Positions 17,873-48,267 are shown, numbered from the stretch's first letter. The stretch is DNA of 64,000 nucleotides from Deltaproteobacteria bacterium (GCA_023954745.1 JAGSHC010000005.1:4550-68549), one strand, 5' to 3'. Numbers and translations: made by a program. Notes: generated by a model from the sequence alone, not told the origin.

Positions 17873-17875
17873 GTG

Positions 17876-18673
17876 CTACTGCAGCGACGCCAGGCGGGCC
17901 TGCGCATCCGGGAGCAAGAGGCTGTCGGGGAACTCCTCCTCGAAGGTGGCGAGGAGGCCCTTTGCCTTGTCCTTGTCGCCGCTGGCGGCATGCACTCGAG
18001 CGAGATCGAGGGTGGCCTGCGCCTTCATGTCCCCCTTCGTCGCGCCGCGAAGGCTCTCGAGGATGCTTCCGGCTCCGGTGAAGTCGCCCTTTGCCTCGAG
18101 CACGTAGGCCTTGCCTACTTGTGCGCTGAGCCCCGTGAGGCTCTTGCCCGAAGCGACCGGCTCGTAGAAGCCGAGAGCCTCATCGTGCTTGCCGAGGCGG
18201 TATGCGATGCCGCCGGCGTCCACGCGGGCCTGATCGGCCTGCGGTGTCCCGTCGTACTCGTCGATGACGCCGGAGAGCGCGGTCAGGGCCTTGCCCAGAG
18301 CCTCGGTGTCCTCGGCGCCCACGTCGCTGGGAGGAGCGTTCAGCGCGGGAAGATCACGCCGCGCCTTGAACAGCGCCTCGGAGGCTTCCTGGGCCTTGTT
18401 GGCGGACATCGTGCCCATCAAGCCCCACACGAAGAGGAGCACGATGACGGCACCGACGGCCATCCCCAGCTCCTTGACGTGATCGAGCACCCAATCGATG
18501 AAAGGGCGACCCTGCTGCTGGAACTGGTCCGGCTGCTGGATCTCCTCGACGACTTCCTTGTGCTTCGTTCGTCGCTTGATGACCGCGTTTGCCCGCCGCT
18601 CCTTGCGGTTCATGGGGGCGTCGGGCGTAGGCCCTGCGGGGATTTCGTTGGGGTCAGGCTGCTCAGCGGCCAC
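17876..18673 (-). CDS. YfgM-like membrane-anchored TPR protein
   Basis: A basic cytoplasmic N-terminus, a single TM (GMAVGAVIVLLFVWGLMG) and a periplasmic TPR-like helical domain. It is adjacent to der and bamB. Confidence 0.5.
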   Translation of the reverse strand: MAAEQPDPNEIPAGPTPDAPMNRKERRANAVIKRRTKHKEVVEEIQQPDQFQQQGRPFIDWVLDHVKELGMAVGAVIVLLFVWGLMGTMSANKAQEASEALFKARRDLPALNAPPSDVGAEDTEALGKALTALSGVIDEYDGTPQADQARVDAGGIAYRLGKHDEALGFYEPVASGKSLTGLSAQVGKAYVLEAKGDFTGAGSILESLRGATKGDMKAQATLDLARVHAASGDKDKAKGLLATFEEEFPDSLLLPDAQARLASLQ

Positions 18674-18745
18674 TGGTCACTCTCCGAAGGGCTCCGGGGG
18701 CCTCCCCGGAGCGACGCGCACAAATACGCGAACGAGGCGCCTTGG

Positions 18746-20446
18746 TCAAGACCCGGAGCGGTCCTTGAACACAAGTCGCACCGGCGTTCCCGACAGGTCG
18801 AACGCCGCGCGCAGCTGGTTGTTCAAGAACCGCCGGTACGAGACCGGGAGCGCTTTGGGTTGGTTGCAGAAGAACGTGAAGGTCGGTGGGCGTATTCCCG
18901 TCTGGGTCACGTAGTAGAAGCGAACGGGCCGGTGCTTGTGCATCGGCGGGGGCGTGCGGCCCCAGATCTCGCGGCCCCAGCGGTTCAGTTGCCCGGTGGA
19001 GATCGTGTAGCGATGGGCGAGGTTCGCCCGGTCGATGGCCGCCCAAATCTTGTGCACGCCGCGCCCCGTGAGGGCCGACAGGAACATCACGTCGGCCCAG
19101 GCGATGTGGGGGAAGCGTCGCCGAAGCTGGAAGAGGAACTCGCGTCGCGGTCCCTCGCCCTTCGGCTTCAGATCCCACTTGTTCACCACGACGATGACCG
19201 CCCTCCCCTGCTCCGAGGCAACCGCCGCGAGGCGGGCCTCCTGCTCGGTGACGCCCTCTTCGCCGTCCACCAGGAGCATGACGACGTGGGCCGCCTCGAT
19301 GGTGCGTAGCGAGCGTCCGACGGTGAGCTTCTCGAGGCGGTCGTCGATGCGCCGGCGCTTGCGCACCCCGGCGGTGTCGATGAGCACGAACTTGTTCCCC
19401 TCGTGCTCGAAGTACACATCGACGGAGTCGCGGGTGGTCCCGGCCATGGGGGACGTGATCGAGCGCTGGTAGCCCAGCAGACGATTGAGGAGCGTGCTCT
19501 TTCCGACGTTGGGGCGCCCCAGCAGCGCAATGCGCGGGATGAAATCCTCCCGCTCTTCGGGCTCGAAGTCCGCGAGGTCCTCGGGATCGACGTCCTCGGC
19601 GTCAAAGGGCACGTCTTCGTCGTACAGCGGGCCCTCCCAGATGACCTCGACGCCGTCCTCGTCCATCACGACGCCGGGCTCGATGACCACGGGGTCCCCT
19701 TCCCCCTCGTCGGCCCAATCGGGCTCGGGGTCCGGCGCCTCGTCCTCGTCCCCGTCCCACGGCTCGGAGCCAGGGCCGCGGGCGGTCGTCGGCTCCATGG
19801 GCATGGCGTCGCCCAGCCGCATGAGTCGGCCGCCCTTCTCTGCCGTGCCCCTCTTCTCGCGACCGCGTCGCCGGCTGGGCTTCTCTCGCGCGCCCACGCC
19901 GTCCCAGGGGTCTTCGACGACACCGCGGGACTCCTCGTCTTCGGGCAGGACCGCAGCGATCGCGTCCTCGAGCTCTTCGAAGTTCAGCCCGTGCTCGGCG
20001 GAGACGTTGAAGAAGCCGTCTACGCCGAGGCGATAGAAGTCGGCCGTCATCACATCCGTCTTGGGGTGGTCCGCCTTGTTCAGGACGTAGAACACTGGCT
20101 GGGAGATTCCGCGCAGACGCTGGGCGATCTCCTCGTCGGTGGCGGTGAGGCCCGCCCGGATGTCCATGACGAACACGATGACGTCGGACTCCTCGATGGC
20201 GACGAGCGCCTGCTGCCGAATGAGGCGGGCCATGCGCTCGGTGGCGATCCCTTCTCGCTCCTCGAACCCCCCCGTGTCGCACAGAAGCACCGTGCGCTCG
20301 CCGATCTCGGCGAGAGCGTAGTTCCGGTCACGCGTGACCCCCGGGGTGTCCTGGACCAGGGCTTTCCGCCGCCCGAGGATGCGGTTGAAGATGGAGCTCT
20401 TTCCCACATTGGGGCGGCCCACGATGGCGACGACGGGCCGACTCAT
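18746..20446 (-). CDS. der: GTPase Der (EngA) with a ~130-aa acidic insertion between the two GTPase domains
   Basis: Two G-domains with GRPNVGKSS and GRPNVGKST P-loops, DTGG/DTAG and NKAD/NKWD motifs, and a KH-like C-terminus. An extra D/E/P-rich segment spans residues ~168-302. Confidence 0.9.
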   Translation of the reverse strand: MSRPVVAIVGRPNVGKSSIFNRILGRRKALVQDTPGVTRDRNYALAEIGERTVLLCDTGGFEEREGIATERMARLIRQQALVAIEESDVIVFVMDIRAGLTATDEEIAQRLRGISQPVFYVLNKADHPKTDVMTADFYRLGVDGFFNVSAEHGLNFEELEDAIAAVLPEDEESRGVVEDPWDGVGAREKPSRRRGREKRGTAEKGGRLMRLGDAMPMEPTTARGPGSEPWDGDEDEAPDPEPDWADEGEGDPVVIEPGVVMDEDGVEVIWEGPLYDEDVPFDAEDVDPEDLADFEPEEREDFIPRIALLGRPNVGKSTLLNRLLGYQRSITSPMAGTTRDSVDVYFEHEGNKFVLIDTAGVRKRRRIDDRLEKLTVGRSLRTIEAAHVVMLLVDGEEGVTEQEARLAAVASEQGRAVIVVVNKWDLKPKGEGPRREFLFQLRRRFPHIAWADVMFLSALTGRGVHKIWAAIDRANLAHRYTISTGQLNRWGREIWGRTPPPMHKHRPVRFYYVTQTGIRPPTFTFFCNQPKALPVSYRRFLNNQLRAAFDLSGTPVRLVFKDRSGS

Positions 20447-21369
20447 TCTCCCGCCCCCCCTCGGAAGTTCCCCAGGCGCTGCAGGAGGCTCCGATCATGC
20501 GTCCACTTGGACTTCGTTCCGACGGTCAACTGCAGGTACACCCGGCATCCGAGCAGGCGCTCGATGTCGAGTCGCGCCGCCGTGCCGATTTCCTTCAGCT
20601 TGCGCCCTCCTCGCCCGATCACCATGGCCTTCTGGGTGTCTCGCTCGACCCAGATGCGGGCCATGATCCGTACGAGGTCCTTGCCTTCCACCTCCTCGAA
20701 CTCCTCGACCTCCACCGCAGTGGCGTAGGGAATCTCCTGGCCGGTGAGGCGAAAGACCTTCTCACGGACGAGCTCGCTGACGATAAAGCGCTCGCTGACG
20801 TCGGTGAGCTGATCCTTCGGGAAGAAGGGTGGCGACTCGGGCAGACGACCGACGATCTCTCGAAGCAGGTCCCCTACCCCATCACCCTTCTCCGCGGACA
20901 CCGGAACGATGGCCTCCCAGGTTCCGGCCTGGTCCCAGGCCGCGAGGAGCGGGAGCAGGTCGGGGCGCTTTACGCGGTCGATCTTGTTGAGCACGGCCAC
21001 CACTGGGAGGTCGCGCTTCTCCAGCGCGTCCAGCACCAGTCGGTTCCGCTCGGGCAACGCGGCGCTGCCGGCGACGTCGATCATGAAGATGACGAGGTCC
21101 ACCTCGGACAACGCGTCCACGGCGGCGTCGACCATGCGCCGGTTGATGGGCGACTGGGCCTCGTGAATCCCCGGTGTATCCAGAAAGACGACTTGGGCGT
21201 CATCCCGGTTGTACAGACCGAGGATGCGGTTGCGGGTCGTTTGGGGCTTGCGGCTGACAATGCTGATCTTCTGCCCGAGCACACGATTTAGGAGCGTGCT
21301 CTTGCCCACATTGGGGCGGCCGATGATCGCTACGTAGCCGCAGCGGTGCTCGTTTGTTTCTTCGGACAT
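20443..21369 (-). CDS. era: GTPase Era
   Basis: GRPNVGKSTLLN, DTPG, NKID and a C-terminal KH domain (VIGRGGRKLKEIG). It has an ATGA overlap with der. Confidence 0.9.
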   Translation of the reverse strand: MSEETNEHRCGYVAIIGRPNVGKSTLLNRVLGQKISIVSRKPQTTRNRILGLYNRDDAQVVFLDTPGIHEAQSPINRRMVDAAVDALSEVDLVIFMIDVAGSAALPERNRLVLDALEKRDLPVVAVLNKIDRVKRPDLLPLLAAWDQAGTWEAIVPVSAEKGDGVGDLLREIVGRLPESPPFFPKDQLTDVSERFIVSELVREKVFRLTGQEIPYATAVEVEEFEEVEGKDLVRIMARIWVERDTQKAMVIGRGGRKLKEIGTAARLDIERLLGCRVYLQLTVGTKSKWTHDRSLLQRLGNFRGGAGE

Positions 21370-21396
21370 GACGGGTTCGCCTGGAACGGGGGGAGG

Positions 21397-22479
21397 TCAG
21401 GAAGCCTTGCGCGCTCCTCGGAGCGGTGGGACCTCGTCGCGCTCAACCAACCCCGCGATCGCGCGGATACGTCCTCTCGGCTGCTCACTCAGGGCGAGCA
21501 CGCGGATGGTGTCGAGGCGGAATCGCTCCTGAAAACCTCGAAGGGTGCTGTTCTCGTGACCGCGTAGCCAAGACTCTTCACGCGGGTGCACTACGAACGT
21601 CACGGCGCGTGTACCGAAGCTCCAGGCCGAAGTCAACGCGGCGCTGGCGGCTCCGCGAAGTAGTTCCGTCTCGACGCGGGTCCTCAAAGAGGGGTCGAAG
21701 GGCCCCGACAAGACCGGTGGTGCCTCCCACAAGTCCTGATCCGGCTGGAGCCCGACCCGAAGGACCGGGACCCCGGCGCTGCGCAGAGCACGGACCATCT
21801 CGCGGCAGGTCGTGATCGCTTCGCGGACCTCCATGGGGATCCAGCGACCGCGCCGATGGTGGGCGCCCAGGCGCGTCCCCCCCAACGCGAGGGCGGGGAG
21901 AATCCTGACACCGTCTGGCCGCGCACGAAGCACAGCGTCGACGGTCGTCATGGCCGACCGGTGCGAGCTCATGGGGAGACCGGGGGTCAGGACCGCGATG
22001 GCGCGGAGCCGGGCGCGATGCAGGCGCCCCAGAGCGTCGAGGCCAGCGCGGGCGGGTCGCGTGATCCCCAGAGCCCGAAGGGACTCCGGGTGCACCGTCA
22101 GCACATGCACCTCGACGGCCACCACCCCCCGGGCCCTGAACTCTCCGAGCGGCGCGCGCAGGACCGACTTCGGCCCCAGCGAGAGCCGAATGCCGCAGGC
22201 ACGACGACGACGCACTTCCGTCTCCGCCGCGTCGAGCAGCGCGGTGCGCGGAGCTCGGGGAAGAGCCCACAGGTCCCCGCCATAGAAGGCGATCTCGACC
22301 GGAGTGCCCCCCGACTTGAGGAGGGCCCGCTCCACGGCCTGGTGCACCGCCTCCGGTCTGGGGCTCGGGGCGGCGTGGCGGCGCGCATCCGGGCCAGTGG
22401 ACGGAGGACACAGCGGGCATCCGGGCTCGCAGTCAGTGTGGGGGAGCACGACCGGCGCGATGGTGTTCCGCCCCTTCAT
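21397..22479 (-). CDS. Radical SAM domain protein
   Basis: An N-terminal CEPGCPLC (Cx3Cx2C) motif followed by a TIM-barrel-like region (EIAFYGGD). It is wedged between rnc and era, with a 4-nt overlap with rnc. Confidence 0.45.
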   Translation of the reverse strand: MKGRNTIAPVVLPHTDCEPGCPLCPPSTGPDARRHAAPSPRPEAVHQAVERALLKSGGTPVEIAFYGGDLWALPRAPRTALLDAAETEVRRRRACGIRLSLGPKSVLRAPLGEFRARGVVAVEVHVLTVHPESLRALGITRPARAGLDALGRLHRARLRAIAVLTPGLPMSSHRSAMTTVDAVLRARPDGVRILPALALGGTRLGAHHRRGRWIPMEVREAITTCREMVRALRSAGVPVLRVGLQPDQDLWEAPPVLSGPFDPSLRTRVETELLRGAASAALTSAWSFGTRAVTFVVHPREESWLRGHENSTLRGFQERFRLDTIRVLALSEQPRGRIRAIAGLVERDEVPPLRGARKAS

Positions 22480-23186
22480 GTCCCCTTCCCGATCACCGCA
22501 TCCAGGGCAGCCTTCGCCGCCGCTTCGTAGGCCTCTCTCTTGCTGCTGCCGGCCCCCTGACCCAGCTCTGTATCACCGATGAGGACGGCCGAGAGGAACT
22601 CCGGGGAGTGGTCGGGCCCCGACCGCGAAAGAACCTCGTAGCGCGGGGTGCCGCGCCTCTGTTGCTGCAGCCGCTCCTGCAGCTCTGTACGTGGGTTTCG
22701 GGGGGACCAGGGGCCGCCGTCACGGTCCCGTCGAGCGAGGGAGTCGGCCATCAGCCGCGTGACGAACGCGCGGGCTGGATCGAAGCCACCGTCCCTGTAG
22801 ATGGCCCCGATGACCGCCTCGAGGGCGTCGCTGAGGATCGAGTCCTTCTCTCGGCCACCCTGGTCGGCCTCGCCTCGGCCCAACCGCAGATACTCCCCGA
22901 GCTCCAAGGTGCGCGCGTGGCGGCTGAGGCTCTCCGCTCGGACCAACATGGCCCGCGCCCGGGTAAGGCGCCCTTCGTCTACGTCGGGGAACTCGCGGAC
23001 GAGGTACTCGGCGATCACCAGGCCCAGCACGGCATCGCCGAGGAACTCGAGCCGCTCGTTGTCCACCGCGGCGGGGGTCTGATCGTGAGCCCATGAGCGA
23101 TGCACGAGGGCGCGGTCCAAGAGCTCGGGCCGAGCGAAGGAGTATCGGAGAGCGCCTTGGAGCGCTTGGAGGGCACCGGTGTTCAC
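22476..23186 (-). CDS. rnc: Ribonuclease III
   Basis: The RNase III signature ERLEFLGDAVLGLVIAEYL and a C-terminal dsRBD. Confidence 0.9.
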   Translation of the reverse strand: MNTGALQALQGALRYSFARPELLDRALVHRSWAHDQTPAAVDNERLEFLGDAVLGLVIAEYLVREFPDVDEGRLTRARAMLVRAESLSRHARTLELGEYLRLGRGEADQGGREKDSILSDALEAVIGAIYRDGGFDPARAFVTRLMADSLARRDRDGGPWSPRNPRTELQERLQQQRRGTPRYEVLSRSGPDHSPEFLSAVLIGDTELGQGAGSSKREAYEAAAKAALDAVIGKGT

Positions 23187-23198: not shown

Positions 23199-24674
23199 TC
23201 ACGGCGAGACGACCAGCGGGTCAGGCACGCCCGGAGCACCAGCAACCGCGGTGAAGCTGCTCGACGGGCCCACGACCCAGAACTGCCTCTCGGGGGACGC
23301 AATGGCGAGCTCCCGGTCCACACCGAGGCCCTGGGGGTCCCACAACAGCGCCAGGCGCACCCGGGGCTCGCCTGGAATCACCCGCACCACGCCATCGCCG
23401 GAGCCAGGCATCGTGCTGACGGAGAGGATGGGAAGCGGGGCGGCGAACTGCCCTCCCCCCGTTCCTCGGAGCATGTAGACCCGACCGTCGTCGTCGGCGC
23501 GCAGTCCCAGGAACAGGTCCGCGACGCCATCCCCGGTGCCATCCCCGAGGTCGATGGAGTCGTAGGCCATGGGCAGCACCGCGCGCACCACTCCGCCGCT
23601 CAGGCCACCGTTGCCATCGCCGATCCACAAGCGGCACTGCGCGGCCACGGCCTCTTCGGCGCAGATCAGGAGGTCCGAAGCCCCATCGAGGTTCACATCG
23701 ATCAGTCGGGGCGCGACGGCCCATCGCTCGCCTGCGGCCACCGCATCGATGGTGATGCTCGTAGTGCGTAGCTGGTACTCCCCGTCGCCTTCGCCGAGGT
23801 GCACGAAGATCGATCCCGCGCCTACGCTGTCGAGGAGCACGCTGACGAGATCCCCCGAACCATCGCCGTCCAGGTCTCCACCGGCGACGACCAGACTTCG
23901 ACTTCCCAAGGAGACCACCTCGTTGATGGGCCCGGTCCAGTCGCCCTCGCACGTCCGGGAGATGGACGCGACGTCGTCCGCATCGGGATCCGAGGGGTCC
24001 ACCTGCTGCCGCATCCATTCCGTCGCTCCGTCGCCGTCGAGGTCCACTGCGATGGCTGAGCCCACCACTCCGGAGGGGACCGGAGCCCCGAGGCCCTGAG
24101 GGTCACCCAGAGCCTCTCCGTCGACCGCCCAGACCCGCAGATCGCCTCCGGGGCCCGCGACGCCCACCCTCGGGGCGAGGTCGGCGGGGACCGGCTCGTC
24201 GGTGAGACCATCGCAGTCGTTGTCGACCCCATCGCACTCCTCGGCCAACTCCGGGGACACGTCGGCGCTCTCGTCGTCGCAGTCCCCTTCGCAGGGCCTC
24301 AGTCCATCGGTGTCGGAGTCGGACTCATCGTCTGGGACAAGCGCGTCGCAGTCGTTGTCGAGGCCATCGCAAAGCTCCGGGGCGCCGTCGAAGATCGTGG
24401 CGTCCTCGTCGTCGCAGTCAACGCAGTCGTGGGCCCCGTCCCCGTCGTCGTCGGCGAGCTCGCTGTCGTCGCCATCGACGAGGCCGTCGCAGTCGTTGTC
24501 CACCCCGTCGCAGACTTCGGGGAGACCGGGCGCGACCGCCGCGCTCGTGTCGTCGCAGTCTCCATCTGTCGGGAGCACGCCGTCCTGGTCACCGTCGATC
24601 GCCTCATCGGGATAGAACGCGTTCGGGGCACATCCCCCCAGAAGCGCGGAGAGCAGAAGGAGGACTCTGATCAT
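23199..24674 (-). CDS. Lipoprotein with MopE-like Cys-rich putative metal-binding repeats (CDGVDNDCDGxxDE) and C-terminal FG-GAP/VCBS-like repeats
   Basis: Lipobox LLSALLGGC. It has five or more copies of DxDxDGxxxxxDCDD...CDGxDNDCDG and several DLDGDGxxD Ca-binding-like repeats. It is translationally coupled (4-nt overlap) to the upstream paralog gene. Confidence 0.6.
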   Translation of the reverse strand: MIRVLLLLSALLGGCAPNAFYPDEAIDGDQDGVLPTDGDCDDTSAAVAPGLPEVCDGVDNDCDGLVDGDDSELADDDGDGAHDCVDCDDEDATIFDGAPELCDGLDNDCDALVPDDESDSDTDGLRPCEGDCDDESADVSPELAEECDGVDNDCDGLTDEPVPADLAPRVGVAGPGGDLRVWAVDGEALGDPQGLGAPVPSGVVGSAIAVDLDGDGATEWMRQQVDPSDPDADDVASISRTCEGDWTGPINEVVSLGSRSLVVAGGDLDGDGSGDLVSVLLDSVGAGSIFVHLGEGDGEYQLRTTSITIDAVAAGERWAVAPRLIDVNLDGASDLLICAEEAVAAQCRLWIGDGNGGLSGGVVRAVLPMAYDSIDLGDGTGDGVADLFLGLRADDDGRVYMLRGTGGGQFAAPLPILSVSTMPGSGDGVVRVIPGEPRVRLALLWDPQGLGVDRELAIASPERQFWVVGPSSSFTAVAGAPGVPDPLVVSP

Positions 24675-25912
24675 CGGACCCGGACCCCTACGTCGAACCC
24701 GCCGCCGGCCGTGAGATGCGGCTTCGCGTCACCGGCGCTGCGGGCACCCACCGGGGAGCTCTCCGACGCAAACGCGTACAGCGCGAGCACCGGTTGCACC
24801 GCCGCCCCGGGCTTCGCCCCCGCGATGCGAACGCCCAGCTCAGGCCCCTGCACAAGGTAGGCGGCCGGGCCGGCGTAGCCGTCGGGAAGCAAAGCAGCTG
24901 CAGCCCCGGCGCCCGCGAAGGACCACGCAAGGAGCGGTCCCAGAGCGATGGGGCCCGCAGGGAATGCAGCGGCGATCTCCAGCCGAACTCCAACCTGTCC
25001 TGCCGGAGGCGCACCTGACGCTCCCCGGAGTCGCTCGCCGCGAGTCACGCCCAACAGGAGCGCCGCGTCGAGGAGAAGCCGCTCGTTGGCGACTCCGAGC
25101 TGTGCCCCCACGAGAAACCTCGCGGAGGCCCCCGCGTTGCCCTGCTGCGCGAACCCCGCGCCTCCTGTCTGGATCATCAGCCCACCAGAGGGTGGCGGCG
25201 GCGCCACGACAGGCGAGGCCTTCTTGGGGGCGGGACTCCGAGCGGGGCGTCGCGTGCGGGCCTTGTCCTCCGACTTGCGCTCGCCATACACCCCCGAGCC
25301 CGACGATTCGACCGAGGGCCGAAGGTCCATCCGCGTCACGCCCTTGGCGACGACCTCGACGATGTGGGCGCCGACCCGATAGCTCCCCACGGGGAGGTAG
25401 ATGGAGGTGGATCCGTCCTCGAGCTCGCTCATTCTCTGGCGCGCGGCTTCGAACGCGCGCTTCAGCTCGGGGTCGAGGAGCGGGGTCGCCGGGGCCGGGC
25501 GAGTTGCCCCCGCCGCCGTGCCCCCGATGATGAGCACCTTGCCGAAACGGCTGGTGAGGAAGTCATGAAACTCCGCGAACTCGGGGTCGAGGCGCGGAGA
25601 GAGAGCCGCCGCCGTCTTGGCCGCCTCGACGGCCCCCGCCAGCTCGCCCAGCGAGTAGCGAGTGCGCGCGATCTGTTCGTGGAGCTCCGCCGCAGCCTGG
25701 CCCTCTGGCAGGAGAGCCGCGGCCTCGAACTCCGCGAGGGCCTGTCGCGCCTGACCCGACTGCAAAAAGAAGCGTCCCTGCGCCATGCGGTGGCCGAAGC
25801 TGCTCGCAGGGGTCGTCGTAGGCTCCTCCTCCTCGGCATGAGCCGAGCCTGGAACGAGCCCGAGGCACAGGGCGGCCAGCGCGAGGCTAGAAGCGGAGCG
25901 CGAGACCCACAT
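24671..25912 (-). CDS. Secreted protein: TPR-like helical N-domain plus Gly/Ala-rich C-domain (paralog 1)
   Basis: Signal peptide MWVSRSASSLALAALCLGLVPGSAHA. It shares the motifs FLQSGQARQALAEFEAA and LPVGSYRVGAHIVEV with the next gene. The start was chosen at the internal ATG, because the longer ORF has a junk-like S/R-rich N-terminus. Confidence 0.5.
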   Translation of the reverse strand: MWVSRSASSLALAALCLGLVPGSAHAEEEEPTTTPASSFGHRMAQGRFFLQSGQARQALAEFEAAALLPEGQAAAELHEQIARTRYSLGELAGAVEAAKTAAALSPRLDPEFAEFHDFLTSRFGKVLIIGGTAAGATRPAPATPLLDPELKRAFEAARQRMSELEDGSTSIYLPVGSYRVGAHIVEVVAKGVTRMDLRPSVESSGSGVYGERKSEDKARTRRPARSPAPKKASPVVAPPPPSGGLMIQTGGAGFAQQGNAGASARFLVGAQLGVANERLLLDAALLLGVTRGERLRGASGAPPAGQVGVRLEIAAAFPAGPIALGPLLAWSFAGAGAAAALLPDGYAGPAAYLVQGPELGVRIAGAKPGAAVQPVLALYAFASESSPVGARSAGDAKPHLTAGGGFDVGVRVR

Positions 25913-27152
25913 CGAGGCCACCTCCGATCCGCAGGAACTGCCGGGTGTCGAGGCCCACGAGCTCCGTGCCGAGTCCGGCGAGGAGGACTCCCTCGGCTCC
26001 AATGAAGCTGCCGCCGACCGCCTCGACCGACGCTCCGATACGAATCCCGACCCGCCGCGGGTCGCCGGCTGGGAGGATGAGCAGGTCGAGCCCGAGCAGT
26101 CCGCCGGCTCCCCCCGTGCCAAGGGCACACTCGCCCAGCCAGCCGTGCCCGGTGGCGGTCTGCAAGGTCTCGCAGCCGACCACCGCGGGGCCGAGGAGCC
26201 CGCCCAGGAACCCCAGGTGGGGGGTCAGCCATGCTCCTCCGCCCAGGCGCACGTCGAGACCCACGTCGAGAATGCCGACAATCTCTGCGCCCACCGACTG
26301 CCGGCCCGGGTTCGTGGGGGAGGTTGGGCTCACCGCGCGGGAGCCGGCCACGCGGGCGCGTCCCTGCACCCGCGCGGGACCCACGTGAACTCCGATGCCG
26401 AAGACCCCGCCCAGTCGCAAGGGAGAGGTGCCGACCGTGCCGCCGGGGATCCCGGTCAGCCCGACGTGGGCGCCCACGAAGAACTCTCGGGGCCCGCCCA
26501 AGGCGACGAAGCCCGCGTCGTCACCGCGCAATGCGCCGGTCTGGAACGGGACGTCCTCAGCGTCGAGCACCAGCGCGAAGGCTTCGCCCGCGGTCACCTC
26601 GAACTCGTGCGAGCCCAGCGAGTAGGTGCCGAAGGGCAGCCACACGGTGGGCTCGGTGAGTCCCTTCCGCCCAGTGCGTTCCACGAGGGCTGCGAGGGTC
26701 TCCTTCTGCTTCGGGTCGATGAGGAAGCCCGTGTGGGCGAGGTCCAGCGGGCGCGTTGGCAGCTCGCGGCCCTCCGGCGCGTACAACAGCAGGCGGCCGT
26801 AGGAGGAATAGAGACGATCCAGTTCAGCCTTTGCCTCACGCTGGGCTTCGTCGCCCAGTACCGAGGCCAGCTCCCACGCGTGGATTGCCAGGCCTACCCG
26901 GCCGGCCTTCTCAGCGGCATTGGCGAGCTTGCTGTGGCAAGGCCGTGAGACCTTGCCCTCCGCGGTGTCGCAGGCCTCCTCGAGGGAATCGGCCGCTTCG
27001 TCGAACTTCCCGAACTGGAACAGCAGGTCGGCCTGCCGACTGAGGAACTCGAAGGACTTCGGTTCCTCTTCCGTGGTCGATTGGGCGGTCGCTCCGTAGG
27101 GGGCCAGAGCCCACGCCAGGAAGCACACCGCGCTCAGGGCACGCAGGGTCAC
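25887..27152 (-). CDS. Secreted protein: TPR-like helical N-domain plus Gly-rich C-domain ending in Phe (paralog 2)
   Basis: A signal peptide, LLFQFGKFDEAADSLEEA, LPFGTYSLGSHEFEV, and a Gly-rich C-terminal half ending ...GLALRF (a C-terminal aromatic as in OM barrels). It lies 6 nt downstream of the short CpaF gene. Confidence 0.5.
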   Translation of the reverse strand: MTLRALSAVCFLAWALAPYGATAQSTTEEEPKSFEFLSRQADLLFQFGKFDEAADSLEEACDTAEGKVSRPCHSKLANAAEKAGRVGLAIHAWELASVLGDEAQREAKAELDRLYSSYGRLLLYAPEGRELPTRPLDLAHTGFLIDPKQKETLAALVERTGRKGLTEPTVWLPFGTYSLGSHEFEVTAGEAFALVLDAEDVPFQTGALRGDDAGFVALGGPREFFVGAHVGLTGIPGGTVGTSPLRLGGVFGIGVHVGPARVQGRARVAGSRAVSPTSPTNPGRQSVGAEIVGILDVGLDVRLGGGAWLTPHLGFLGGLLGPAVVGCETLQTATGHGWLGECALGTGGAGGLLGLDLLILPAGDPRRVGIRIGASVEAVGGSFIGAEGVLLAGLGTELVGLDTRQFLRIGGGLDVGLALRF

Positions 27153-27158: not shown

Positions 27159-28319
27159 TCAGGCCTCTTCGCTGGTCTTCGAGGCGCGCCGGCGATCCCG
27201 CTCGGCACGACGCGCGCGGGCCGCATCGAGCATCTCCTTGGGGAAGCGCAGCCCCGCGAGCTTGATCTGCTCGGCGAAGGACGGCAGACGGCCCGTCGGC
27301 TCCAGGCGTCCCAGGATCTTGCCGTCCTCGTCCTTGCCCTCGGCCTTGAACGTGAAGAGGTCTCGCACCTGGTACTGACCGTCCGCGAGCTCCAAAACCT
27401 CGGTGATGTGGGTGATCTTCCGGCTGCCGTCGTGGAAGCGGGCCTGCTGCACGACCACGTCGAGAGCCATGGCGATCTGACTTCGCAGCGCCCACAGGGG
27501 CAACTCCACGTCGCCCATGAGGCACAGCGTCTCGAGCCGGGACAGCGTCTCCATGGGCGTCGACGCGTGAGTCGTGGACATGGACCCCTTGTGGCCCGAG
27601 ACCATGGCCTGGATCATGTCCAGCGCCTCGCCGGAGCGGACCTCGCCGATGACCACCCGGTCGGGGCGCATCCGCATCGCTGAGCGGAAGAGGTTGCGAA
27701 TCGTGACGGCCCCCCTGCCCTGGCGGTCCGGCGGCCGAGACTCGTAGTAGAGGAGGTGCGGCTTCTGGAGCTGGAGCTCCGTGCTGTCCTCGATGACGAT
27801 GATTCGCTGGTCGTCGGGGATGAACGAGCTCATCACGTTCAGAAGGGAGGTCTTCCCCGAGCCTGTTCCTCCCGCGATGACGATGTTGCACTCGATCTTC
27901 ACGGCGGCGTCGAGGAACTCGGCCGCGGCGGGGGTCATGGACCCGAAGCCCAGCAGCTTCTCTACCGTCAGTGCTTCCCGGAAGAACTTGCGGATGGCGA
28001 TGCAGATGCCCTTGCGGGCGACGGGCGGCATCGTGATGTGCACGCGGCTGCCGTTGGGCAGGCGGGCGTCCAGCAAGGGGCTCTCCCAATCGATCACCCG
28101 CCCGACGTACTGGGCGATGTTCTTCGCGAGAGCAAACACGTGGTCCTCGTGGGCGAACTTCGCGTCCGTCAACTCGAGCTTCCCGCCCCGCTCCACAAAG
28201 ACCTCTTCGGGACCGTTGATGAGGATCTCAGAGACGGAGTTGTCGTCGAGGTGGTGCTGGATGGGCACGAGGTACAGCGCGAGAGTCTGCTCGAAGACGC
28301 TCTCGAGAGTGGCGGTCAT
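27159..28319 (-). CDS. CpaF/TadA-family secretion ATPase, minimal form without an N-terminal regulatory domain
   Basis: Walker A GGTGSGKTS, Asp box, Walker B RIIVIEDSTEL, and a His box GHKGSMSTTHA of the VirB11/CpaF family. Confidence 0.85.
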   Translation of the reverse strand: MTATLESVFEQTLALYLVPIQHHLDDNSVSEILINGPEEVFVERGGKLELTDAKFAHEDHVFALAKNIAQYVGRVIDWESPLLDARLPNGSRVHITMPPVARKGICIAIRKFFREALTVEKLLGFGSMTPAAAEFLDAAVKIECNIVIAGGTGSGKTSLLNVMSSFIPDDQRIIVIEDSTELQLQKPHLLYYESRPPDRQGRGAVTIRNLFRSAMRMRPDRVVIGEVRSGEALDMIQAMVSGHKGSMSTTHASTPMETLSRLETLCLMGDVELPLWALRSQIAMALDVVVQQARFHDGSRKITHITEVLELADGQYQVRDLFTFKAEGKDEDGKILGRLEPTGRLPSFAEQIKLAGLRFPKEMLDAARARRAERDRRRASKTSEEA

Positions 28320-28352: not shown

Positions 28353-29792
28353 TCAGTTGCCGAAGACAGAGCCGCCCTTTTTGCCCCGCATCAACTTGTC
28401 GAGGACCTTCTTCTGCTTGCGACCGAACTGATAACGCTCGTCTTCCTTGTCCGGGAAGATGCGCTGCAGCCGCTCCATCTCTTCGAGGGCTCGGTCGTAG
28501 TTTCCTGCGGACTTCTCCCGCACGTAGGCCAGCTTGAGACGGCGGAACTCCTGGTCGAGCAGACCCTCAGCCTCGGCGATCTTCCGGTCCATCTCGCTGG
28601 CGAAGGCCGGCCAGTTTTCCGGGGGCACGAGCCCGAGCTGGCCCTTGGAGCGCTTCATGAACTCCACAGAGGTCCACAGGTTCTCGTCCGCGATCTGGTA
28701 CTCGCGGAGGTACGTGGAGCCGATGCCAAAGAGCCGCTGGGCCTCGGCGATGATCTCCTGGTCCGTCCGGTCGTTGCGGGGCGGGAGGATGATCTCCTCG
28801 GGCGTCGGGGTCGTCGTGCCCGGGCCCGGCGCCACGGGCGCGGTGCTTGGCTGGGTCAGCGCATAGGCGAACGACAGCAAGATGACGACGGCGGCGCCAA
28901 CCAGCACGACGTTGCGGATGAGGGGGAGGTTCGGCGGAGCCTTCTTGCCCTTCCCCTTTCCGCGGCCCTTCTTCTTCCGCTTCTTCGCGGTGATCACACC
29001 GGAGGAAGACCTGCGCGGGCCGGGAGCGCCCGGGCCCGGGGCCCGGCCTGGCGTCCCCGGCATCCCTGCGGACGAGGGCATCCCGGGAGCGGGAGGCATC
29101 CCCATGGACGAGCGACCCATGTTGGGGGGCATCCCCATCTGGGAGGGCGGACCCTGGGGCGGAACCCCCGGCGGCAGGCCGAACTGCGAGGGCGGGCCCT
29201 GGGGGGGGCCGCCGCGCGGTGGCGGTGGCGGCGCACCGAGGTGCGCGGGGTGCTGGCCGGAGAGGTGCCCGTAGGTGCCGGTCCCGATTCCTCCTGGAGG
29301 GGGCCCGGGAGGAGGCCCGGGGGGCAGTCCTCCGAGGGGGCCGGGAGGGTGCGTGTCCTGGCCACCGTGGGTGGGGCCTTGCTTGACGACGGTCGCCTCA
29401 GCCCCCGGCTTGGGGAGGGGCGCGCCCGCGCGCGAGTCCATCGAGCTCCCGGCGAACGCCACCGTCGCTTCGGGGTCCTGCTTCGCCGCTCCCTCCCGAG
29501 GGATACGCACCCGCAGCGCGATATCGCAGAACGTGATCAAGTCCCCGTCCTGCACGTAGACCCGCTCGATGGGACGGTCATTGAGGTACGTGTGGTTGAC
29601 GGTGCCGAGGTTCTCGAGGACGAGCTGGTCGCCTTGCCAACTCATCTCACACTGCTGGCGGCTCACATGCGGAGAGGACACCTGGAGTTGGCACTGGGAA
29701 CCCCTGCCGACAAGGATCGTGTCCTCGCGGAGGGAATAGGTCTCGCCGACATCTGGGCCGGCGAGGATTTCGACCTGGATCAGTCGCGCCAA
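28353..29792 (-). CDS. FHA domain - PG-rich linker - polyLys - TM - periplasmic domain protein (YscD/PrgH-like topology)
   Basis: An FHA signature (ILVGRGSQCQLQVSSPHVSRQQCEM...LENLGTVNHTYLND), ~150 aa of P/G-rich low complexity, KKRKKKGRGKGKGKK, a TM LIRNVVLVGAAVVILLSFAYAL, and a ~160-aa C-terminal domain. The start is uncertain. I chose an in-frame TTG (L49 of the track ORF), because the upstream 48 codons look non-coding (S/R-rich) and this choice leaves a 73-nt gap to tadC. Confidence 0.6.
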   Translation of the reverse strand: MARLIQVEILAGPDVGETYSLREDTILVGRGSQCQLQVSSPHVSRQQCEMSWQGDQLVLENLGTVNHTYLNDRPIERVYVQDGDLITFCDIALRVRIPREGAAKQDPEATVAFAGSSMDSRAGAPLPKPGAEATVVKQGPTHGGQDTHPPGPLGGLPPGPPPGPPPGGIGTGTYGHLSGQHPAHLGAPPPPPRGGPPQGPPSQFGLPPGVPPQGPPSQMGMPPNMGRSSMGMPPAPGMPSSAGMPGTPGRAPGPGAPGPRRSSSGVITAKKRKKKGRGKGKGKKAPPNLPLIRNVVLVGAAVVILLSFAYALTQPSTAPVAPGPGTTTPTPEEIILPPRNDRTDQEIIAEAQRLFGIGSTYLREYQIADENLWTSVEFMKRSKGQLGLVPPENWPAFASEMDRKIAEAEGLLDQEFRRLKLAYVREKSAGNYDRALEEMERLQRIFPDKEDERYQFGRKQKKVLDKLMRGKKGGSVFGN

Positions 29793-29865
29793 ACTCGTTC
29801 TCGTTGCCTTCGAAGAGTACCAGTGTTCACGCGACCGACGGAAAGCCCGCCGGTGCGCGATCGAG

Positions 29866-30780
29866 CTAGAAGAGCTCGCCCTTCGCGGCTCGTACGATGA
29901 TGCCGCCGAACAGCGTGAGCAAGACCGCACCGACAATGAAGAGCAGCGGCATGATCATCTTGACCGGTGCCTCGCCCGCGAGCTTCTCGGCGCGCTGGCT
30001 CCGCTTGAGGCGGATCGCCTGGGCCTGAATCCGCAGGATGTTCGTCAGAGGAGTACCCATCTGCTCAGCCTGGACCACGGAACTCACCAGGCCTGAGACG
30101 TAGTCCGATGGGATGCGGTCCTTGAGATTGATCAGGGCCTCACGCCGGGTGGTGCCCATCTTCACTTCCTGAAGCACGTACCGCATCTCCTCCACGAGGG
30201 GGCTGTCCGTGGAGTCCTTGTTGACGATGCGCTCGAGCGAACTGTTGAAGTCGAGACCTGCGCCGACGGACAGCGCGAGCACGTCGAGCATGTACGGCAG
30301 GTCCTTGTTGATGGACGTGATCCGCGTCATCACCTGCTCGTCGAGGTACATCACGGGGAAGTAGGCGCCGAACATCGCCGCGACCATGCACAGCGGGATG
30401 CGGGGGCTGCCGGTGACGCTGGTGTTGAAGAAGAACGCCAGTCCAAAGAAGCTCAAGGCGCTCAGGACGCCGAAGGCGAGGTACTCGTCGGGGGTGAAGC
30501 CCCCCATGTAGCCCGCCCGGGCCAGCCGATCCCGCAGGCCGTTGCGCAGATTCGTGATGGGGAGCAGCTCGCCCCAGAACGTGAAGATCTTCAGCGTGCT
30601 GATGAGGATGCGGTAGATGGGCGACTGCGCCATCAACTGCCGGCGCTTGTTCATCAGGTACCCGCGCTCGGGCACCGTGCCCCGATACTCCTCGTCCGGG
30701 AAGAACCCGAGACCGAAGAGGAACACCGCACCAATGGCCAGGAGGCCAGCGACGATGCTCAGCAGGGTGCTTGTGGCCAT
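29866..30780 (-). CDS. TadC-like inner-membrane platform protein (T2SS F family)
   Basis: ~304 aa polytopic membrane protein with a GspF-like cytoplasmic domain, positioned next to tadB. Confidence 0.7.
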   Translation of the reverse strand: MATSTLLSIVAGLLAIGAVFLFGLGFFPDEEYRGTVPERGYLMNKRRQLMAQSPIYRILISTLKIFTFWGELLPITNLRNGLRDRLARAGYMGGFTPDEYLAFGVLSALSFFGLAFFFNTSVTGSPRIPLCMVAAMFGAYFPVMYLDEQVMTRITSINKDLPYMLDVLALSVGAGLDFNSSLERIVNKDSTDSPLVEEMRYVLQEVKMGTTRREALINLKDRIPSDYVSGLVSSVVQAEQMGTPLTNILRIQAQAIRLKRSQRAEKLAGEAPVKMIMPLLFIVGAVLLTLFGGIIVRAAKGELF

Positions 30781-30793
30781 CGACCTGGCTCTC

Positions 30794-31651
30794 CTAGACG
30801 TCCACCGAGACGATCTTGCGAATCATGAAGATCCCGACAATCTCGAAGAGGGCGATGAAGAAGAGGATGATCCAGCCGATGGGGTCCTCCCAGAGGGGCG
30901 AGACCATGAGCGGGTCGACCTTGTAGATGAGCACCGCCATGCCGACGGGCAGCGACCCGAGGACCCAGGCCTGCATGCGGCCCTGAGCGGTCATCGTCTC
31001 GATCTTGTCCTCGAGGCGGCGGATGTCCCGAATCGCCTCGGCGGTGTCCTCGAACACCTGGGGCAAGTTGCCACCGGCGACACGCGCGACCTGCACCGAC
31101 GTGATCACGAGGTCGAGGTTCTTGCTGCGGACCCGCTCGCCCATGTTGTTCATGGCTTCATCGAGCGTCAGGCCCAGCTTGTGCTCCTTGAGCATCAAGC
31201 CGAACTCCTGGGCGATGGGCGGCGCGGTGTTGTCCACGAGGATGCCGATGGCCTGCGGCAGGGTGAGGCCGGCGCGCAGAGAGTTCGACATGGAGATGAG
31301 CGCGTCGGGGATCTGATCTTCGAGCCGCTCCAGGCGCTGTCGCTTCGCCCGGGCGAGGCCGAGCCACGGGAACAGCCCCACCAGAATCGAGACGAGCACG
31401 CCGTTGGCCGGCCCGAGCAGGTAGCTCACGAAGATGAACAAGACCGTCGTGATCGCGATGTGCGTGTAGAAGTACTTCTTCGGGTCGGTGCGCGAGTAGA
31501 TCGCATCCAGCGCCCGGTGCAGCCGCTCCAGATAGGAGCGCTCGAAGCGCTTCCAGCCCGTGATCAGCTCGGGGCCGTTGAGCCAGGCGAGCAGAAACAC
31601 AATCCCGCCAATGGCGAGCCCGATGACGGTGACGATGAGGGACGCGTCCAT
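30794..31651 (-). CDS. TadB-like inner-membrane platform protein
   Basis: ~285 aa with an N-terminal TM, a cytoplasmic GspF-like domain and C-terminal TMs. It has a TAATG overlap with the upstream ATPase gene. Confidence 0.7.
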   Translation of the reverse strand: MDASLIVTVIGLAIGGIVFLLAWLNGPELITGWKRFERSYLERLHRALDAIYSRTDPKKYFYTHIAITTVLFIFVSYLLGPANGVLVSILVGLFPWLGLARAKRQRLERLEDQIPDALISMSNSLRAGLTLPQAIGILVDNTAPPIAQEFGLMLKEHKLGLTLDEAMNNMGERVRSKNLDLVITSVQVARVAGGNLPQVFEDTAEAIRDIRRLEDKIETMTAQGRMQAWVLGSLPVGMAVLIYKVDPLMVSPLWEDPIGWIILFFIALFEIVGIFMIRKIVSVDV

Positions 31652-33528
31652 TAGATGAAGCTCCCGTCGGCGATGATGCCGGAGTTGATGAGGTCCGGGA
31701 TGAAGCTCGGGATGTACCCGGTGAGCACCATTTCCCCGACGATCTTCCCGTTGTCATCGATGCCGCGCTGCTGGAACTTGAAGATGTCCTCGAGCCGAAG
31801 CCGCCCGTCGTCATCGAGGCCCACGCACTCGGTGACATGGGTCACCCGGCGGGTGCCGTCCGAGAAGCGCGACTGCTGCACCACCACATGAATGGCGGCG
31901 GCGATCTGCTCGCGGATTGCCTTTACCGGCAGGTCCATTCCCGCCATGAGCACCATGGTCTCGAGGCGGCTCATCATGTCGGTGGGGGTGTTCGCGTGGC
32001 CCGTAGTGAGGGAGCCGTCGTGACCGGTGTTCATGGCCTGGAGCATGTCCAGGGCCTCTCCCCCGCGGCACTCACCCACGACGATGCGGTCGGGGCGCAT
32101 GCGCAAGGAGTTCTTCACGAGGTCGCGGATCTCGTAGGCCCCCTTCCCTTCGAGGTTGGCGGGTCGGGTCTCGAGGCTGACCACATGGTCCTGAGGCAGT
32201 CGCAGCTCCGCGGCGTCCTCGATGGTGACGATGCGCTCCTTGTTGGGAATGAAGCTGCTCAGGCAGTTGAGCAGTGTCGTCTTCCCGGAGCCGGTGCCGC
32301 CAGAGATGATGATGTTCTTGTGTCCGAGTACGCACTTCTCGAGGAAGCTCGCAATCTGCTGGGTCACCGAGCCGAACCCCACCAAGTCCTGCATGGTGAG
32401 GGACTTCTTGCCGAACTTCCGGATCGTGATGCAGGGGCCCTTGATGGCCAGGGGCGGGATGATCGCGTTGACGCGCGAGCCGTCCTTGAGGCGGGCGTCC
32501 ACTAGCGGTGAACTCTCGTCGATGCGGCGCCCCAGGGGCGTGATGATGCGCTCGATGACCGCCAGGACCGCTTCGTGGCTCGTGAAGGTCTTCCCGGTGA
32601 ACTCGATGTTCCCCGCGCGCTCCACGTAGATCTGGTCCTTGTTGACGACCATGATCTCCGTGATGGAGTCGTCGTCGAGGAAGTCCTCGAGGGGGCCGAG
32701 GCCGAGGGCCTCGTTGAGGACCTCTTTGATGAGCAGCTCGCGGTCGAGGTCGGGCTCAATGTCCGCTTCGAGCTCGGCGATGATGTCGAAGAGGAGGTTC
32801 CGCGCACGCTCGCGAAGGTCCTCTTCGGCCACCTTGTCCATGTCGAGAGTCTTGAGGTCCAGGTACTGGAGCAGGCGGCGGTGGACGCGCCGCTTCAGGT
32901 CGACGGGAGCGGAACGAGCTCCCATCCAGTGGCCCGCGATCTGAGGGCCGTCTGCGTGGGGCTGGTGTCCAGCTGCGACCGGCGCCTGGCCCTGATGCAG
33001 GACGAGGGCCCCGTCGGCGTGGGCCTGCTGCTCGTAGTACTCGGCGGGATACTGCTGTTGCTGCTGGGCGTAGGCCTGGTCGTAGCCCTGCTGCTGCACC
33101 GTCGCCTGGTGGGCGGCCGCTCCGGAGTCGGCGGGAACCTGGCCGTGGGCCTGCTGCTGATAGTACTCCGCCGGATACTCGCCCTGGCCGGCCGCCGCCT
33201 GGGCCCGGTTGTACTCGTCCCATGCCTGGTGAAGCTGCGCTTCGGTGTAGACCGAGAGCACGACGTTGCCGATGCCCACGCGGTCACCCACGTTGAGGAT
33301 CTGCTTGCCGAACACCCGCTCGCCGTTGACGAACGTTCCGTTGGTGGACCGGTCTGTGAGGGTCACGGACTCACCGTTCACGAGGAACTCGGCGTGGTAA
33401 CGCGAGACCTCCATGTAGGGGAGGACGAGTTCGTTGCCGCCCTCACGCCCCGCGCGGATGTGGTCCGTGTCGAAGTCCGACTGGACCTCCCGCTGGCTCT
33501 CCGGATCCCGGTAGACGATGCGGATCAA
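31651..33528 (-). CDS. FHA domain :: CpaF/TadA ATPase fusion with a Gln/Tyr-rich linker
   Basis: An N-terminal FHA (NELVLPYMEVSRYHAEFLVNGESVTLTDRSTNGTFVNGERV), ~90 aa of Q/Y/A low complexity, then a full CpaF core (GGTGSGKTT, IVTIEDAAEL, GHDGSLTTGHA). Confidence 0.85.
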   Translation of the reverse strand: MIRIVYRDPESQREVQSDFDTDHIRAGREGGNELVLPYMEVSRYHAEFLVNGESVTLTDRSTNGTFVNGERVFGKQILNVGDRVGIGNVVLSVYTEAQLHQAWDEYNRAQAAAGQGEYPAEYYQQQAHGQVPADSGAAAHQATVQQQGYDQAYAQQQQQYPAEYYEQQAHADGALVLHQGQAPVAAGHQPHADGPQIAGHWMGARSAPVDLKRRVHRRLLQYLDLKTLDMDKVAEEDLRERARNLLFDIIAELEADIEPDLDRELLIKEVLNEALGLGPLEDFLDDDSITEIMVVNKDQIYVERAGNIEFTGKTFTSHEAVLAVIERIITPLGRRIDESSPLVDARLKDGSRVNAIIPPLAIKGPCITIRKFGKKSLTMQDLVGFGSVTQQIASFLEKCVLGHKNIIISGGTGSGKTTLLNCLSSFIPNKERIVTIEDAAELRLPQDHVVSLETRPANLEGKGAYEIRDLVKNSLRMRPDRIVVGECRGGEALDMLQAMNTGHDGSLTTGHANTPTDMMSRLETMVLMAGMDLPVKAIREQIAAAIHVVVQQSRFSDGTRRVTHVTECVGLDDDGRLRLEDIFKFQQRGIDDNGKIVGEMVLTGYIPSFIPDLINSGIIADGSFI

Positions 33529-33535
33529 GCGTCAC

Positions 33536-34789: not shown

Positions 34790-34818
34790 CTGCTGCTCCG
34801 CTCCCCGTGCACCCGCGC

Positions 34819-35679: not shown

Positions 35680-35844
35680 TGAAGAAAACCGGGGCTACCG
35701 GGCTTCCTCAATGCGTGGGCGAGTCTACAACAAAGCCTACCCAGGGGTGGCCGCGGGACCGGACACAGGGTTGGCACGTTGTGAGGAAGGAGCCGCTGTA
35801 CGCGCTGTGCGCGGGTTCGTGCCCTGGTTGCAGGGCCTACCAAA

Positions 35845-36858: not shown

Positions 36859-36871
36859 CTCTGGACTCCTC

Positions 36872-37468: not shown

Positions 37469-37477
37469 GTCCGTCTC

Positions 37478-39929: not shown

Positions 39930-39943
39930 CTCTGCGCTCCGTC

Positions 39944-40495: not shown

Positions 40496-40627
40496 GGTTG
40501 AGGGTGGTTCCTGTCGAGCGTCGGGTCAGGCCTGGAGCGGTGACCCGCGTTCCTGCGGAGGAGAGGCGTCAGCCTCAAGAGGGGGAATCGGTTTCCTGGC
40601 GGGCGAGGTCAAGGAGCCGCAAGGGAC

Positions 40628-40643
40628 GCGTATTTCAATACGC
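40628..40643. promoter_or_regulatory. 16-bp palindrome GCGTATTtcAATACGC, 3' of the flp1 pilin gene and 5' of the prepilin peptidase gene
   Basis: A perfect inverted repeat read from the sequence. It is AT-rich for this genome and looks like a candidate operator. Confidence 0.3.
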
Positions 40644-40684
40644 AACCGAGCGAGCGACGCCGACATCGCCCGCCAGGGAGCCGA

Positions 40685-40903: not shown

Positions 40904-40973
40904 TTGGGTGTCTCCTTGAGGTCGGTGGCGTTCATGTAGGGAGCGCGGCTCCCCCGGTTGTTGGTTTCGAGGA

Positions 40974-41159: not shown

Positions 41160-41216
41160 GGTCGAGGCTTCTCCCGCTCGATGCCTCGCGTTCAATCGTC
41201 GCGGCGGTCCGAGCAA

Positions 41217-41742: not shown

Positions 41743-41746
41743 TGGA

Positions 41747-46608: not shown

Positions 46609-46628
46609 CGAACTGCCCAAGGCCGTGG

Positions 46629-48185: not shown

Positions 48186-48267
48186 CCTCGTCAAATTCCC
48201 CGACCCAATGGTACGCAAAGTCGCTTCTCCGTGCTCGCGCGGCGCTGATTCTGCCAGTGCGCGACGT

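Follow-up and report, generated by a model that had tools for sequence, protein, structure and literature searches.

The locus described here raises the question of whether three genes that closely follow a set of Tad genes are components of the Tad machine or belong to a different system. These genes, denoted A (25887..27152, 421 amino acids (aa)), B (24671..25912, 413 aa) and C (23199..24674, 491 aa), are located on the minus strand of a 64,000-nucleotide (nt) stretch of DNA from a Deltaproteobacteria bacterium (GCA_023954745.1, JAGSHC010000005.1:4550-68549), which was analyzed at its full length and is referred to below as the window. A and B are paralogs predicted to share one architecture, namely, a tetratricopeptide repeat (TPR) region, an alpha/beta domain and an outer membrane (OM) beta-barrel, and C is a predicted lipoprotein with MopE and FG-GAP repeats. 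A preliminary description of this region recognized the three genes at 23199-27152, which are real, encoded on the minus strand and conserved, and proposed for them a role as Tad pilotins, adhesins or effectors. The balance of the evidence tips slightly in favor of another assignment, in which A, B and C form the distal end of an older module that includes a Ser/Thr kinase, an ATP-binding cassette (ABC) importer and a PD40 propeller protein, and A and B would be OM-anchored periplasmic scaffolds of this module. Judging from sequence comparison, the adjacency to the Tad genes is most likely derived, and A, B and C most likely are not core Tad components.

A family of TPR-barrel proteins encoded outside Tad loci

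An exhaustive search with a profile that combines the A and B families against 1.84e9 representative sequences identifies 687 matches with E ≤ 1e-3 and 189 (as fifty-percent clusters) with E ≤ 1e-10. Most of the weaker matches are secreted proteins of 390-420 aa that cover profile positions ~10-200. The motifs QARFFxKKGW, (L/F)DPxLK and LPxGxYxxNG are found in the 20 sequences inspected, and 83 of the 99 full-length representatives have F, W or L at the C-terminus. On this sequence evidence, A and B belong to a sizeable unannotated family of ~400-aa proteins of the same predicted architecture that is not represented by a Pfam or NCBIfam model; an NCBIfam search gives no matches for A, B or C. 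Both A and B contain the signal peptide, the QxxFF-type TPR, the DPxLK...LPxGxY domain and the C-terminal barrel that are typical of the family.

The genomic context of the family outside the close relatives of the window was examined in 12 distant loci, all of them metagenomic, that were obtained with two related queries (three by direct look-up and nine from a metagenome scan). In 11 of these, the genes follow, in part or in whole, the order Ser/Thr kinase, CarboxypepD_reg-like protein, hypothetical protein, SBP_bac_5, two permeases, two ABC ATPases, TPR-barrel protein and PD40, the last two occurring in either order; the TPR-barrel gene adjoins the importer genes and/or PD40, and the Ser/Thr kinase heads the module wherever the contig reaches far enough. 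The twelfth locus (L027) has the TPR-barrel match alone. No Tad genes are present in any of the 12 loci within the flanks examined. The carriers are uncultured, high-GC, mostly marine bacteria, and one relative is labeled “Myxococcales bacterium” in NCBI. The combination of a kinase, an Opp-like importer, a PD40 propeller and a TPR-barrel protein represents a conserved module that has not been described previously.

This module is also present in the window, but there the Tad locus separates it from A. The window (64-72% G+C) contains an uninterrupted co-directional array of minus-strand genes, traced from open reading frames and Pfam matches, that extends from ~55.1 kb to 16.5 kb. In the direction of transcription, the array starts with two Ser/Thr kinases, hyp509, SBP_bac_5, two permeases, two ATPases, PD40 and a DUF192 gene, continues with the Tad genes (two flp genes, prepilin peptidase, TadE/TadG-like genes, hyp337, RcpC, secretin, FHA-CpaF, TadB, TadC, a protein with an FHA domain and a transmembrane (TM) segment, and the short CpaF), and proceeds to A, B, C, rnc, a radical-SAM gene, era, der, a YfgM-like TPR gene and BamB. 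The head of the module (48268..55108; Pkinase, 1e-40) consists of hyp509 and tandem Ser/Thr kinases (49794-52898 and 52895-55108; Pfam) and is followed by the Opp/Dpp-type importer (42850..48347; Pfam), with SBP_bac_5 at 46629-48347, two permeases and two ATPases, and by a secreted, TolB-like PD40 beta-propeller (41747..42997; Pfam PD40, 1.2e-23). In tblastn searches, the genes for the solute-binding protein, permeases, ATPases, PD40, hyp509 and kinase are collinear with the distant loci, the importer specifically with L021-L031. The PD40 protein is 32-40% identical to those encoded beside the remote TPR-barrel genes (E from 1e-42 to 1e-72), and the N- and C-terminal regions of the kinase STK1, as well as hyp509, match L021, L022, L025, L026 and L029. 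Within the kinase pair, the C-terminal region of the 1034-aa protein (aa ~750-1030) is conserved in the module-heading kinases of L022, L025 and L026.

The most informative of the distant loci is L021, in which the ABC genes are followed by PD40, a TPR-barrel protein (P0230), a 728-aa protein and a 954-aa MopE-repeat protein. The N-terminus of the 728-aa protein is matched by the A/B profile with an hhalign probability of 96.7% (E 4e-10), so that, as far as sequence similarity can tell, L021 has the arrangement PD40, A, B, C of the window minus the Tad locus. The residues Q40, D146, P147, K150, P173, G175 and Y177, which do not vary between A and B, fall within motifs that are conserved also among the Tad-less relatives; hence the conserved features of these proteins predate the Tad adjacency.

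The reciprocal case is provided by L020, which encodes a Kil-like set consisting of RcpC, secretin, FHA-CpaF, TadB, TadC, an FHA protein and a short CpaF (59% identity), and in which no homolog of A, B or C is found. Downstream of the short CpaF, this locus encodes an FHA-TM protein and then a small lipoprotein; the 411-aa gene that follows cpaF2 was considered as a possible A/B homolog and rejected (hhalign probability 0.3%), being the FHA-TM protein. Given this double dissociation, that is, the occurrence of the family where there are no Tad genes and of a Kil-like Tad locus where the family is missing, and the presence of the module upstream in the window, the link to Tad appears to be secondary. 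A role as Tad pilotins, adhesins or effectors accordingly finds no support in the Tad-less distant loci, in the gene order of L021 or in L020.

Base composition lends weak support to the same grouping. The G+C content of third codon positions (GC3) is 0.81-0.85 for A, B and C, 0.78-0.89 for the ABC and PD40 genes, and 0.86-0.96 for the Tad genes; most of the housekeeping genes of the array are also below the Tad genes in GC3. The excess in the Tad genes could reflect either the level of expression or a different origin.

Predicted architecture of A and B

In a BLASTP comparison, A and B are 27% identical in their N-terminal 170 aa (E 1e-7). AlphaFold2 (AF2) models built from a 43-sequence alignment of the two families jointly have mean predicted local distance difference test (pLDDT) scores of 88.0 for A and 86.3 for B and present one common architecture, with a signal peptide, six helices that make up three TPRs, a small alpha/beta domain, a low-confidence linker and eight long beta-strands. 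In A, a type I signal peptide (aa 1-23, ATA/QS) precedes the TPR-like domain (aa 34-117, nt 26802-27053), the conserved “DPxxK...LPxGxY” alpha/beta domain (aa 118-195, nt 26568-26801) and a modeled 8-stranded OM beta-barrel (aa 222-421, nt 25890-26489) with the terminus ...ALRF. Two pairs of cysteines are conserved in A, C61/C72 in the TPR domain and C327/C342 at the tip of the long beta5-beta6 hairpin. B likewise starts with a type I signal peptide (ending AHA/EEEE), followed by the TPRs (aa 39-122, nt 25547-25798), the alpha/beta domain (aa 123-196, nt 25325-25546), a disordered Pro/Lys-rich linker (aa 197-241) and a modeled 8-stranded barrel (aa 242-413, nt 24674-25189), for which Foldseek detects structural matches to NspA and OmpA. 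All A orthologs shown in the alignment terminate in ...LRF, a C-terminal aromatic beta-signal, which is missing in the B family with its non-aromatic termini (VRVR, VRIR, GGPR, etc.).

These results agree with the preliminary description, according to which A and B are paralogs with a signal peptide and a TPR-like domain and one of them, now identified as A, ends in Phe. The beta-barrel prediction that it had proposed as a check yields an 8-stranded C-terminal barrel in both proteins, so that, on the strength of the models, the description of A and B as secreted TPR proteins with OM barrels appears to be correct. Because the number of strands is even, both termini of each barrel are predicted to be periplasmic, which would place the TPR and alpha/beta domains in the periplasm. 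Neither protein contains a lipobox; judging from the sequences and the AF2 models, anchoring would occur via the barrel instead.

A search of the PDB with the A/B profile retrieves only consensus or generic TPR proteins, and a Pfam search with the isolated middle domain of A, B and two remote homologs yields nothing credible, the best match being PRC-barrel with E 0.04. The barrels themselves resemble the small 8-stranded barrels of NspA, OmpW, the N-terminal domains of OmpA/OprF and OmpX/Ail in having Gly-rich strands after a signal peptide and, in the case of A, a terminal Phe, but there is no detectable sequence similarity, given that the PDB profile search detects TPR proteins only. The differences are in the long, Cys-bridged beta5-beta6 hairpin of A, in the missing terminal aromatic residue of B and in domain order: in OmpA, the barrel precedes the periplasmic domain, whereas in A and B it is C-terminal to a 190-aa module of TPRs and the alpha/beta domain. 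The family would thus represent an unannotated group of OM proteins with an unusual order of domains, periplasmic TPR, alpha/beta and 8-stranded barrel.

An N-terminal periplasmic TPR region followed by a C-terminal OM barrel is also the domain logic of Slam, BcsC, PgaA and PelB, and Slam genes adjoin the genes for their lipoprotein substrates, as B adjoins C. Barrels of the Slam/BcsC type, however, have 14-18 strands, form translocation pores and come with long TPR arrays. A and B differ from these large barrels in that they have eight strands and are modeled as closed anchors, with the best structural matches among non-pore anchors.

The lipoprotein C

Inspection of the C sequence reveals a lipobox, LLGG-C15, with Ala at position +2 (MIRVLLLLSALLGG-C15-APN), and the protein is probably located in the OM. 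C matches PF11617, Cu-binding_MopE, with 92.1 bits (cut-off 27; E 2.3e-26) in three stretches and PF13517, FG-GAP_3, with 38.4 bits (cut-off 26.9; E 1.9e-9) in two; searches with MopE and FG-GAP profiles had been proposed in the preliminary description. A PDB sequence search finds no relative. C therefore belongs with the MopE-repeat/FG-GAP lipoproteins, scoring above both Pfam cut-offs and carrying the lipobox. The earlier estimate of at least five repeats is too high: the MopE region (aa 39-160, nt 24195-24560) contains three CDGxDNDCD cores, at aa 55, 102 and 147. The FG-GAP/Ca-binding-type repeats span aa ~200-400 (nt 23475-24077), with DxDxDG motifs at aa 211, 267 and 326. The C orthologs (L001-L018) range from 491 to 866 aa and have 1-7 CxGxD[ND]DC[DN] cores, which is a case of repeat copy-number variation. 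Copper binding is known for MopE itself and not for the PF11617 repeat in general.

Coupling to the Tad genes in the close relatives

The GTG start codon of A (27152) lies 6 nt from the stop codon of the short CpaF gene (27159), A and B overlap by 26 nt, with GGAGG preceding the ATG of B (25912), and B and C overlap by 4 nt (ATGA). The 6-nt gap had been noted before; the 4-nt overlap, previously assigned to both junctions, holds for B/C and not for A/B, where the 26-nt overlap recurs in L001, L003, L005 and L009. The three genes also do not form an operon tail, as had been suggested, given that rnc starts 12 nt past C and the tight same-strand array continues through the radical-SAM gene, era, der and yfgM to bamB (16475). 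A consensus scan of positions 17000-36900 reveals nothing promoter-like above the expectation from shuffled sequences and fewer terminator-like sites than in shuffled sequence. A promoter and terminator between the trio and the Tad genes, which had been named as evidence that would speak against their coupling, are accordingly not found in this interval; the scan neither separates the trio from the Tad genes nor proves the existence of an operon.

Close relatives are few: the 5.8e9 proteins searched include 13 clusters related to A and 31 related to B, every one of them derived from metagenomes or metagenome-assembled genomes (MAGs), and nine loci are found among the GTDB species representatives. 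The order RcpC ... cpaF2, A, B, C, rnc ... bamB is identical in every locus of this clade that is long enough to judge, including L032, where A is merely 32% identical, so that the physical coupling to the short CpaF reported for the window is conserved throughout the clade. Identity within the clade is 64-93% for the core Tad proteins (RcpC, secretin, both CpaFs, TadB and TadC), 46-84% for rnc, era and der, and 32-67% for A, B and C. The conservation of the Tad core above the level of era, der and rnc suggests strong constraint on the Kil-like machine. With synteny this uniform, the clade cannot reveal the working partners of the trio, and functional membership cannot be deduced from the fact that a gene is tightly coupled in translation to that of a secretion ATPase.

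Several features of the public records concern these genes. A has no 100% match among the 5.8e9 proteins (the best is 67%), although both B and the short CpaF, from one deposited contig of 80,873 bp, are present at 100%, and it seems not to have been called as a protein. B is deposited 42 aa short (P0014, 371 aa, 100% match) and thereby lacks its signal peptide. L016 and L017, two contigs of MAG CAZUHI01, have identical tblastn coordinates and scores over ~19.6 kb of 21 kb, which probably results from assembly or binning redundancy rather than from true duplication.

The Kil-like Tad locus

The Tad locus of the window (28353..41216, minus strand) was delineated from Pfam matches, translated open reading frames and comparison with the Kil system of Myxococcus xanthus (PMC8460266), which it resembles in having an FHA-fused CpaF (31651-33528, 625 aa), extra FHA proteins and a short secretin (33536-34789, 417 aa) and in lacking TadZ and TadD. 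It differs from the Kil system in being a single contiguous locus and in encoding a second, FHA-less ATPase. Kil cluster 1 also carries genes for predicted OM lipoproteins of the propeller type, MXAN_3102 and MXAN_3103 (PMC8460266).

The second ATPase, the short CpaF/TadA-type protein upstream of A (27159..28319, 386 aa, minus strand), has no FHA domain and is matched by Pfam T2SSE (8.8e-52) and TIGR03819 (4e-83); the two ATPases of the locus are ~47-50% identical to each other. Short CpaF proteins show a gap in identity, with at least 69% within the clade and at most 60% in other lineages, the relatives at 55-60% coming from records assigned to Polyangia, Myxococcales, Persicimonas and Sumerlaeota. 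The cpaF2-like gene of L019 is an orphan that adjoins a Ser/Thr kinase gene and is uninformative.

Possible functions of A, B and C

If the trio forms the distal end of the kinase/ABC/PD40 module, the ~14.7 kb from DUF192 to cpaF2 that make up the Kil-like Tad locus would, in this clade, have become placed between PD40 and A. The barrel-anchored platform of TPRs and the alpha/beta domain might bind the periplasmic PD40 propeller and/or the solute-binding protein, and this binding would tether the importer-associated machinery to the OM, by analogy with Pal, TolB and CpoB, which link the OM to an inner-membrane complex. C would then be a partner in the envelope or at the surface that evolves fast and varies in its number of repeats. 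The likeness to Tol-Pal consists in the combination of a PD40 propeller, an OM-anchored protein and a TPR module that are encoded after inner-membrane transport components; it is only an analogy. Here the inner-membrane part is an Opp-type ABC importer and Ser/Thr kinases are at the head, and no homology to TolQRA or Pal was found, although no search aimed at it was made.

Several observations weigh against this assignment. The nesting of the Tad locus within the module is documented in the window alone, tadE2 or rcpC being the point at which the other loci of the clade begin; the physical partners proposed for A and B are entirely inferred; and all the data come from uncultured, metagenome-assembled sequences. 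The cpaF2-A junction is tight and conserved (6 nt in the window and -4 to +7 nt elsewhere in the clade), as expected of co-expressed partners. Neither TadZ nor a TadD-like lipoprotein was found in the Tad locus of the window, and it is the absence of the latter that counts here, given that L020 encodes a 209-aa, TadD-like TPR lipoprotein (FAFAG-C; 9375-10004) directly upstream of its short CpaF. The last ~14 residues of the secretin, ETLD[IV]YDAA[ED]xK[WF] (33536-33580), are nearly invariant in the clade; in the window, the C-terminal 15 residues are ...RETLDIYDAAETKW. In Pseudomonas aeruginosa, TadD, a TPR protein, recognizes the four C-terminal residues of RcpA (PMC10499894).

The same observations form the case for co-option of A and/or B as barrel-anchored pilotins or RcpB-like factors of the Kil-like Tad machine, with the periplasmic TPRs binding the conserved tail at the C-terminus of the short secretin and the barrel replacing the lipid anchor of TadD. 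Such a role would be compatible with the adjacency to cpaF2 across the clade, with the lack of a promoter or terminator between A and the Tad genes in the scanned interval, and with the M. xanthus Kil system, for which the absence of TadD and RcpB is also reported (PMC8460266). In common with the TadD/PilF pilotins (PMC10499894), A and B are predicted OM-tethered periplasmic TPR proteins that adjoin Tad genes in this clade, in a locus otherwise devoid of a pilotin. Unlike these pilotins, A and B are not lipoproteins, being anchored by a barrel rather than by a lipid, have an extra domain next to their three TPRs and have relatives outside Tad loci; neither TadD nor PilF is among the sequence matches or the top-ranked structural matches of A and B. 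TadD is encoded with tad genes across lineages, whereas for A and B this association holds within one clade only: outside it, the family is never found beside Tad genes (12 of the 12 loci), and the motifs conserved in A and B are common to the Tad-less relatives. Furthermore, A and B evolve fast (32-67% identity), in contrast to the secretin and its tail, both nearly invariant, which is unexpected for a pair that interacts as peptide and groove. Co-option is therefore rather unlikely. For Kil-like Tad systems, the search for the missing OM assembly factors is nevertheless narrowed to a specific candidate interaction, that of the A/B TPRs with the secretin tail.

Somewhat more doubtful is a combined scenario, in which a Kil-like Tad machine is not only nested in but also wired to a kinase-controlled peptide-import module, and the TPR-barrel proteins have been recruited as a barrel-anchored pilotin or OM anchor that docks the tail of the N0-less secretin. 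If this were the case, the recruited proteins would take the place of TadD and RcpB, whose absence is unexplained in the Myxococcus Kil system as well.

It appears improbable that the trio are OM proteins tied to rnc, era, der, yfgM and bamB, for example as helpers of OM biogenesis, and unrelated to either Tad or the ABC module. The 12-nt gap to rnc, the synteny from rnc to bamB in every locus of the clade and the presence of YfgM-like and BamB genes downstream would fit such a role. Arrangements of the rnc-era and yfgM-bamB-der types are, however, widespread and exist elsewhere without genes of this trio. In addition, the rnc, era, der, yfgM and bamB genes of the window are unmatched in those remote loci that were searched as DNA with tblastn, and the P0219 locus lists no such genes. 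The housekeeping genes in question (rnc, radical-SAM, era, der, YfgM-like TPR_21 and bamB) occupy positions 16475..23186 on the minus strand and were identified with Pfam.

That the Tad machine would export the three proteins, or display them, as surface adhesins or effectors is a very remote possibility. In its favor, one could cite the location of the genes downstream of the Tad genes, the fast evolution of all three, the variable number of MopE cores in C (1-7) and the FG-GAP repeats of C, which are common in adhesins. However, Tad and type IV pilus machines polymerize pilins with class III signal peptides, which are absent from A, B and C, all three of which instead carry Sec-type or lipoprotein signal peptides that, together with the BAM-type terminal Phe of A, imply export routes of their own and make delivery as effectors, raised in the preliminary description, unlikely, and A/B homologs occur together with a MopE-repeat protein in L021, where there are no Tad genes.

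Other genes of the window

The DUF192 gene (41308..41919, minus strand; PF02643, 1.5e-15) is located between PD40 and the flp genes. The FHA527 protein consists of an FHA domain, a Pro-rich linker, a TM segment and a helical domain; it was considered as a hidden TadD-like fusion and rejected, as it shows no similarity to the TPR lipoprotein of L020.

The product of hyp337 (35845-36858, minus strand), a gene located between the TadE-like genes and RcpC, is anchored in the membrane, is not matched by any Pfam model and is conserved in the clade. The C-terminal half of this protein matches the product of a gene beside the pilin/TadG genes of L020 (27% identity, E 7e-14), and hyp337 may be an unrecognized Tad-associated component. 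The window contains no rRNA gene, and the sole Rfam/ARAGORN match in its 64 kb is a tRNA-Ala (CGC) gene at 15408-15483 on the plus strand.

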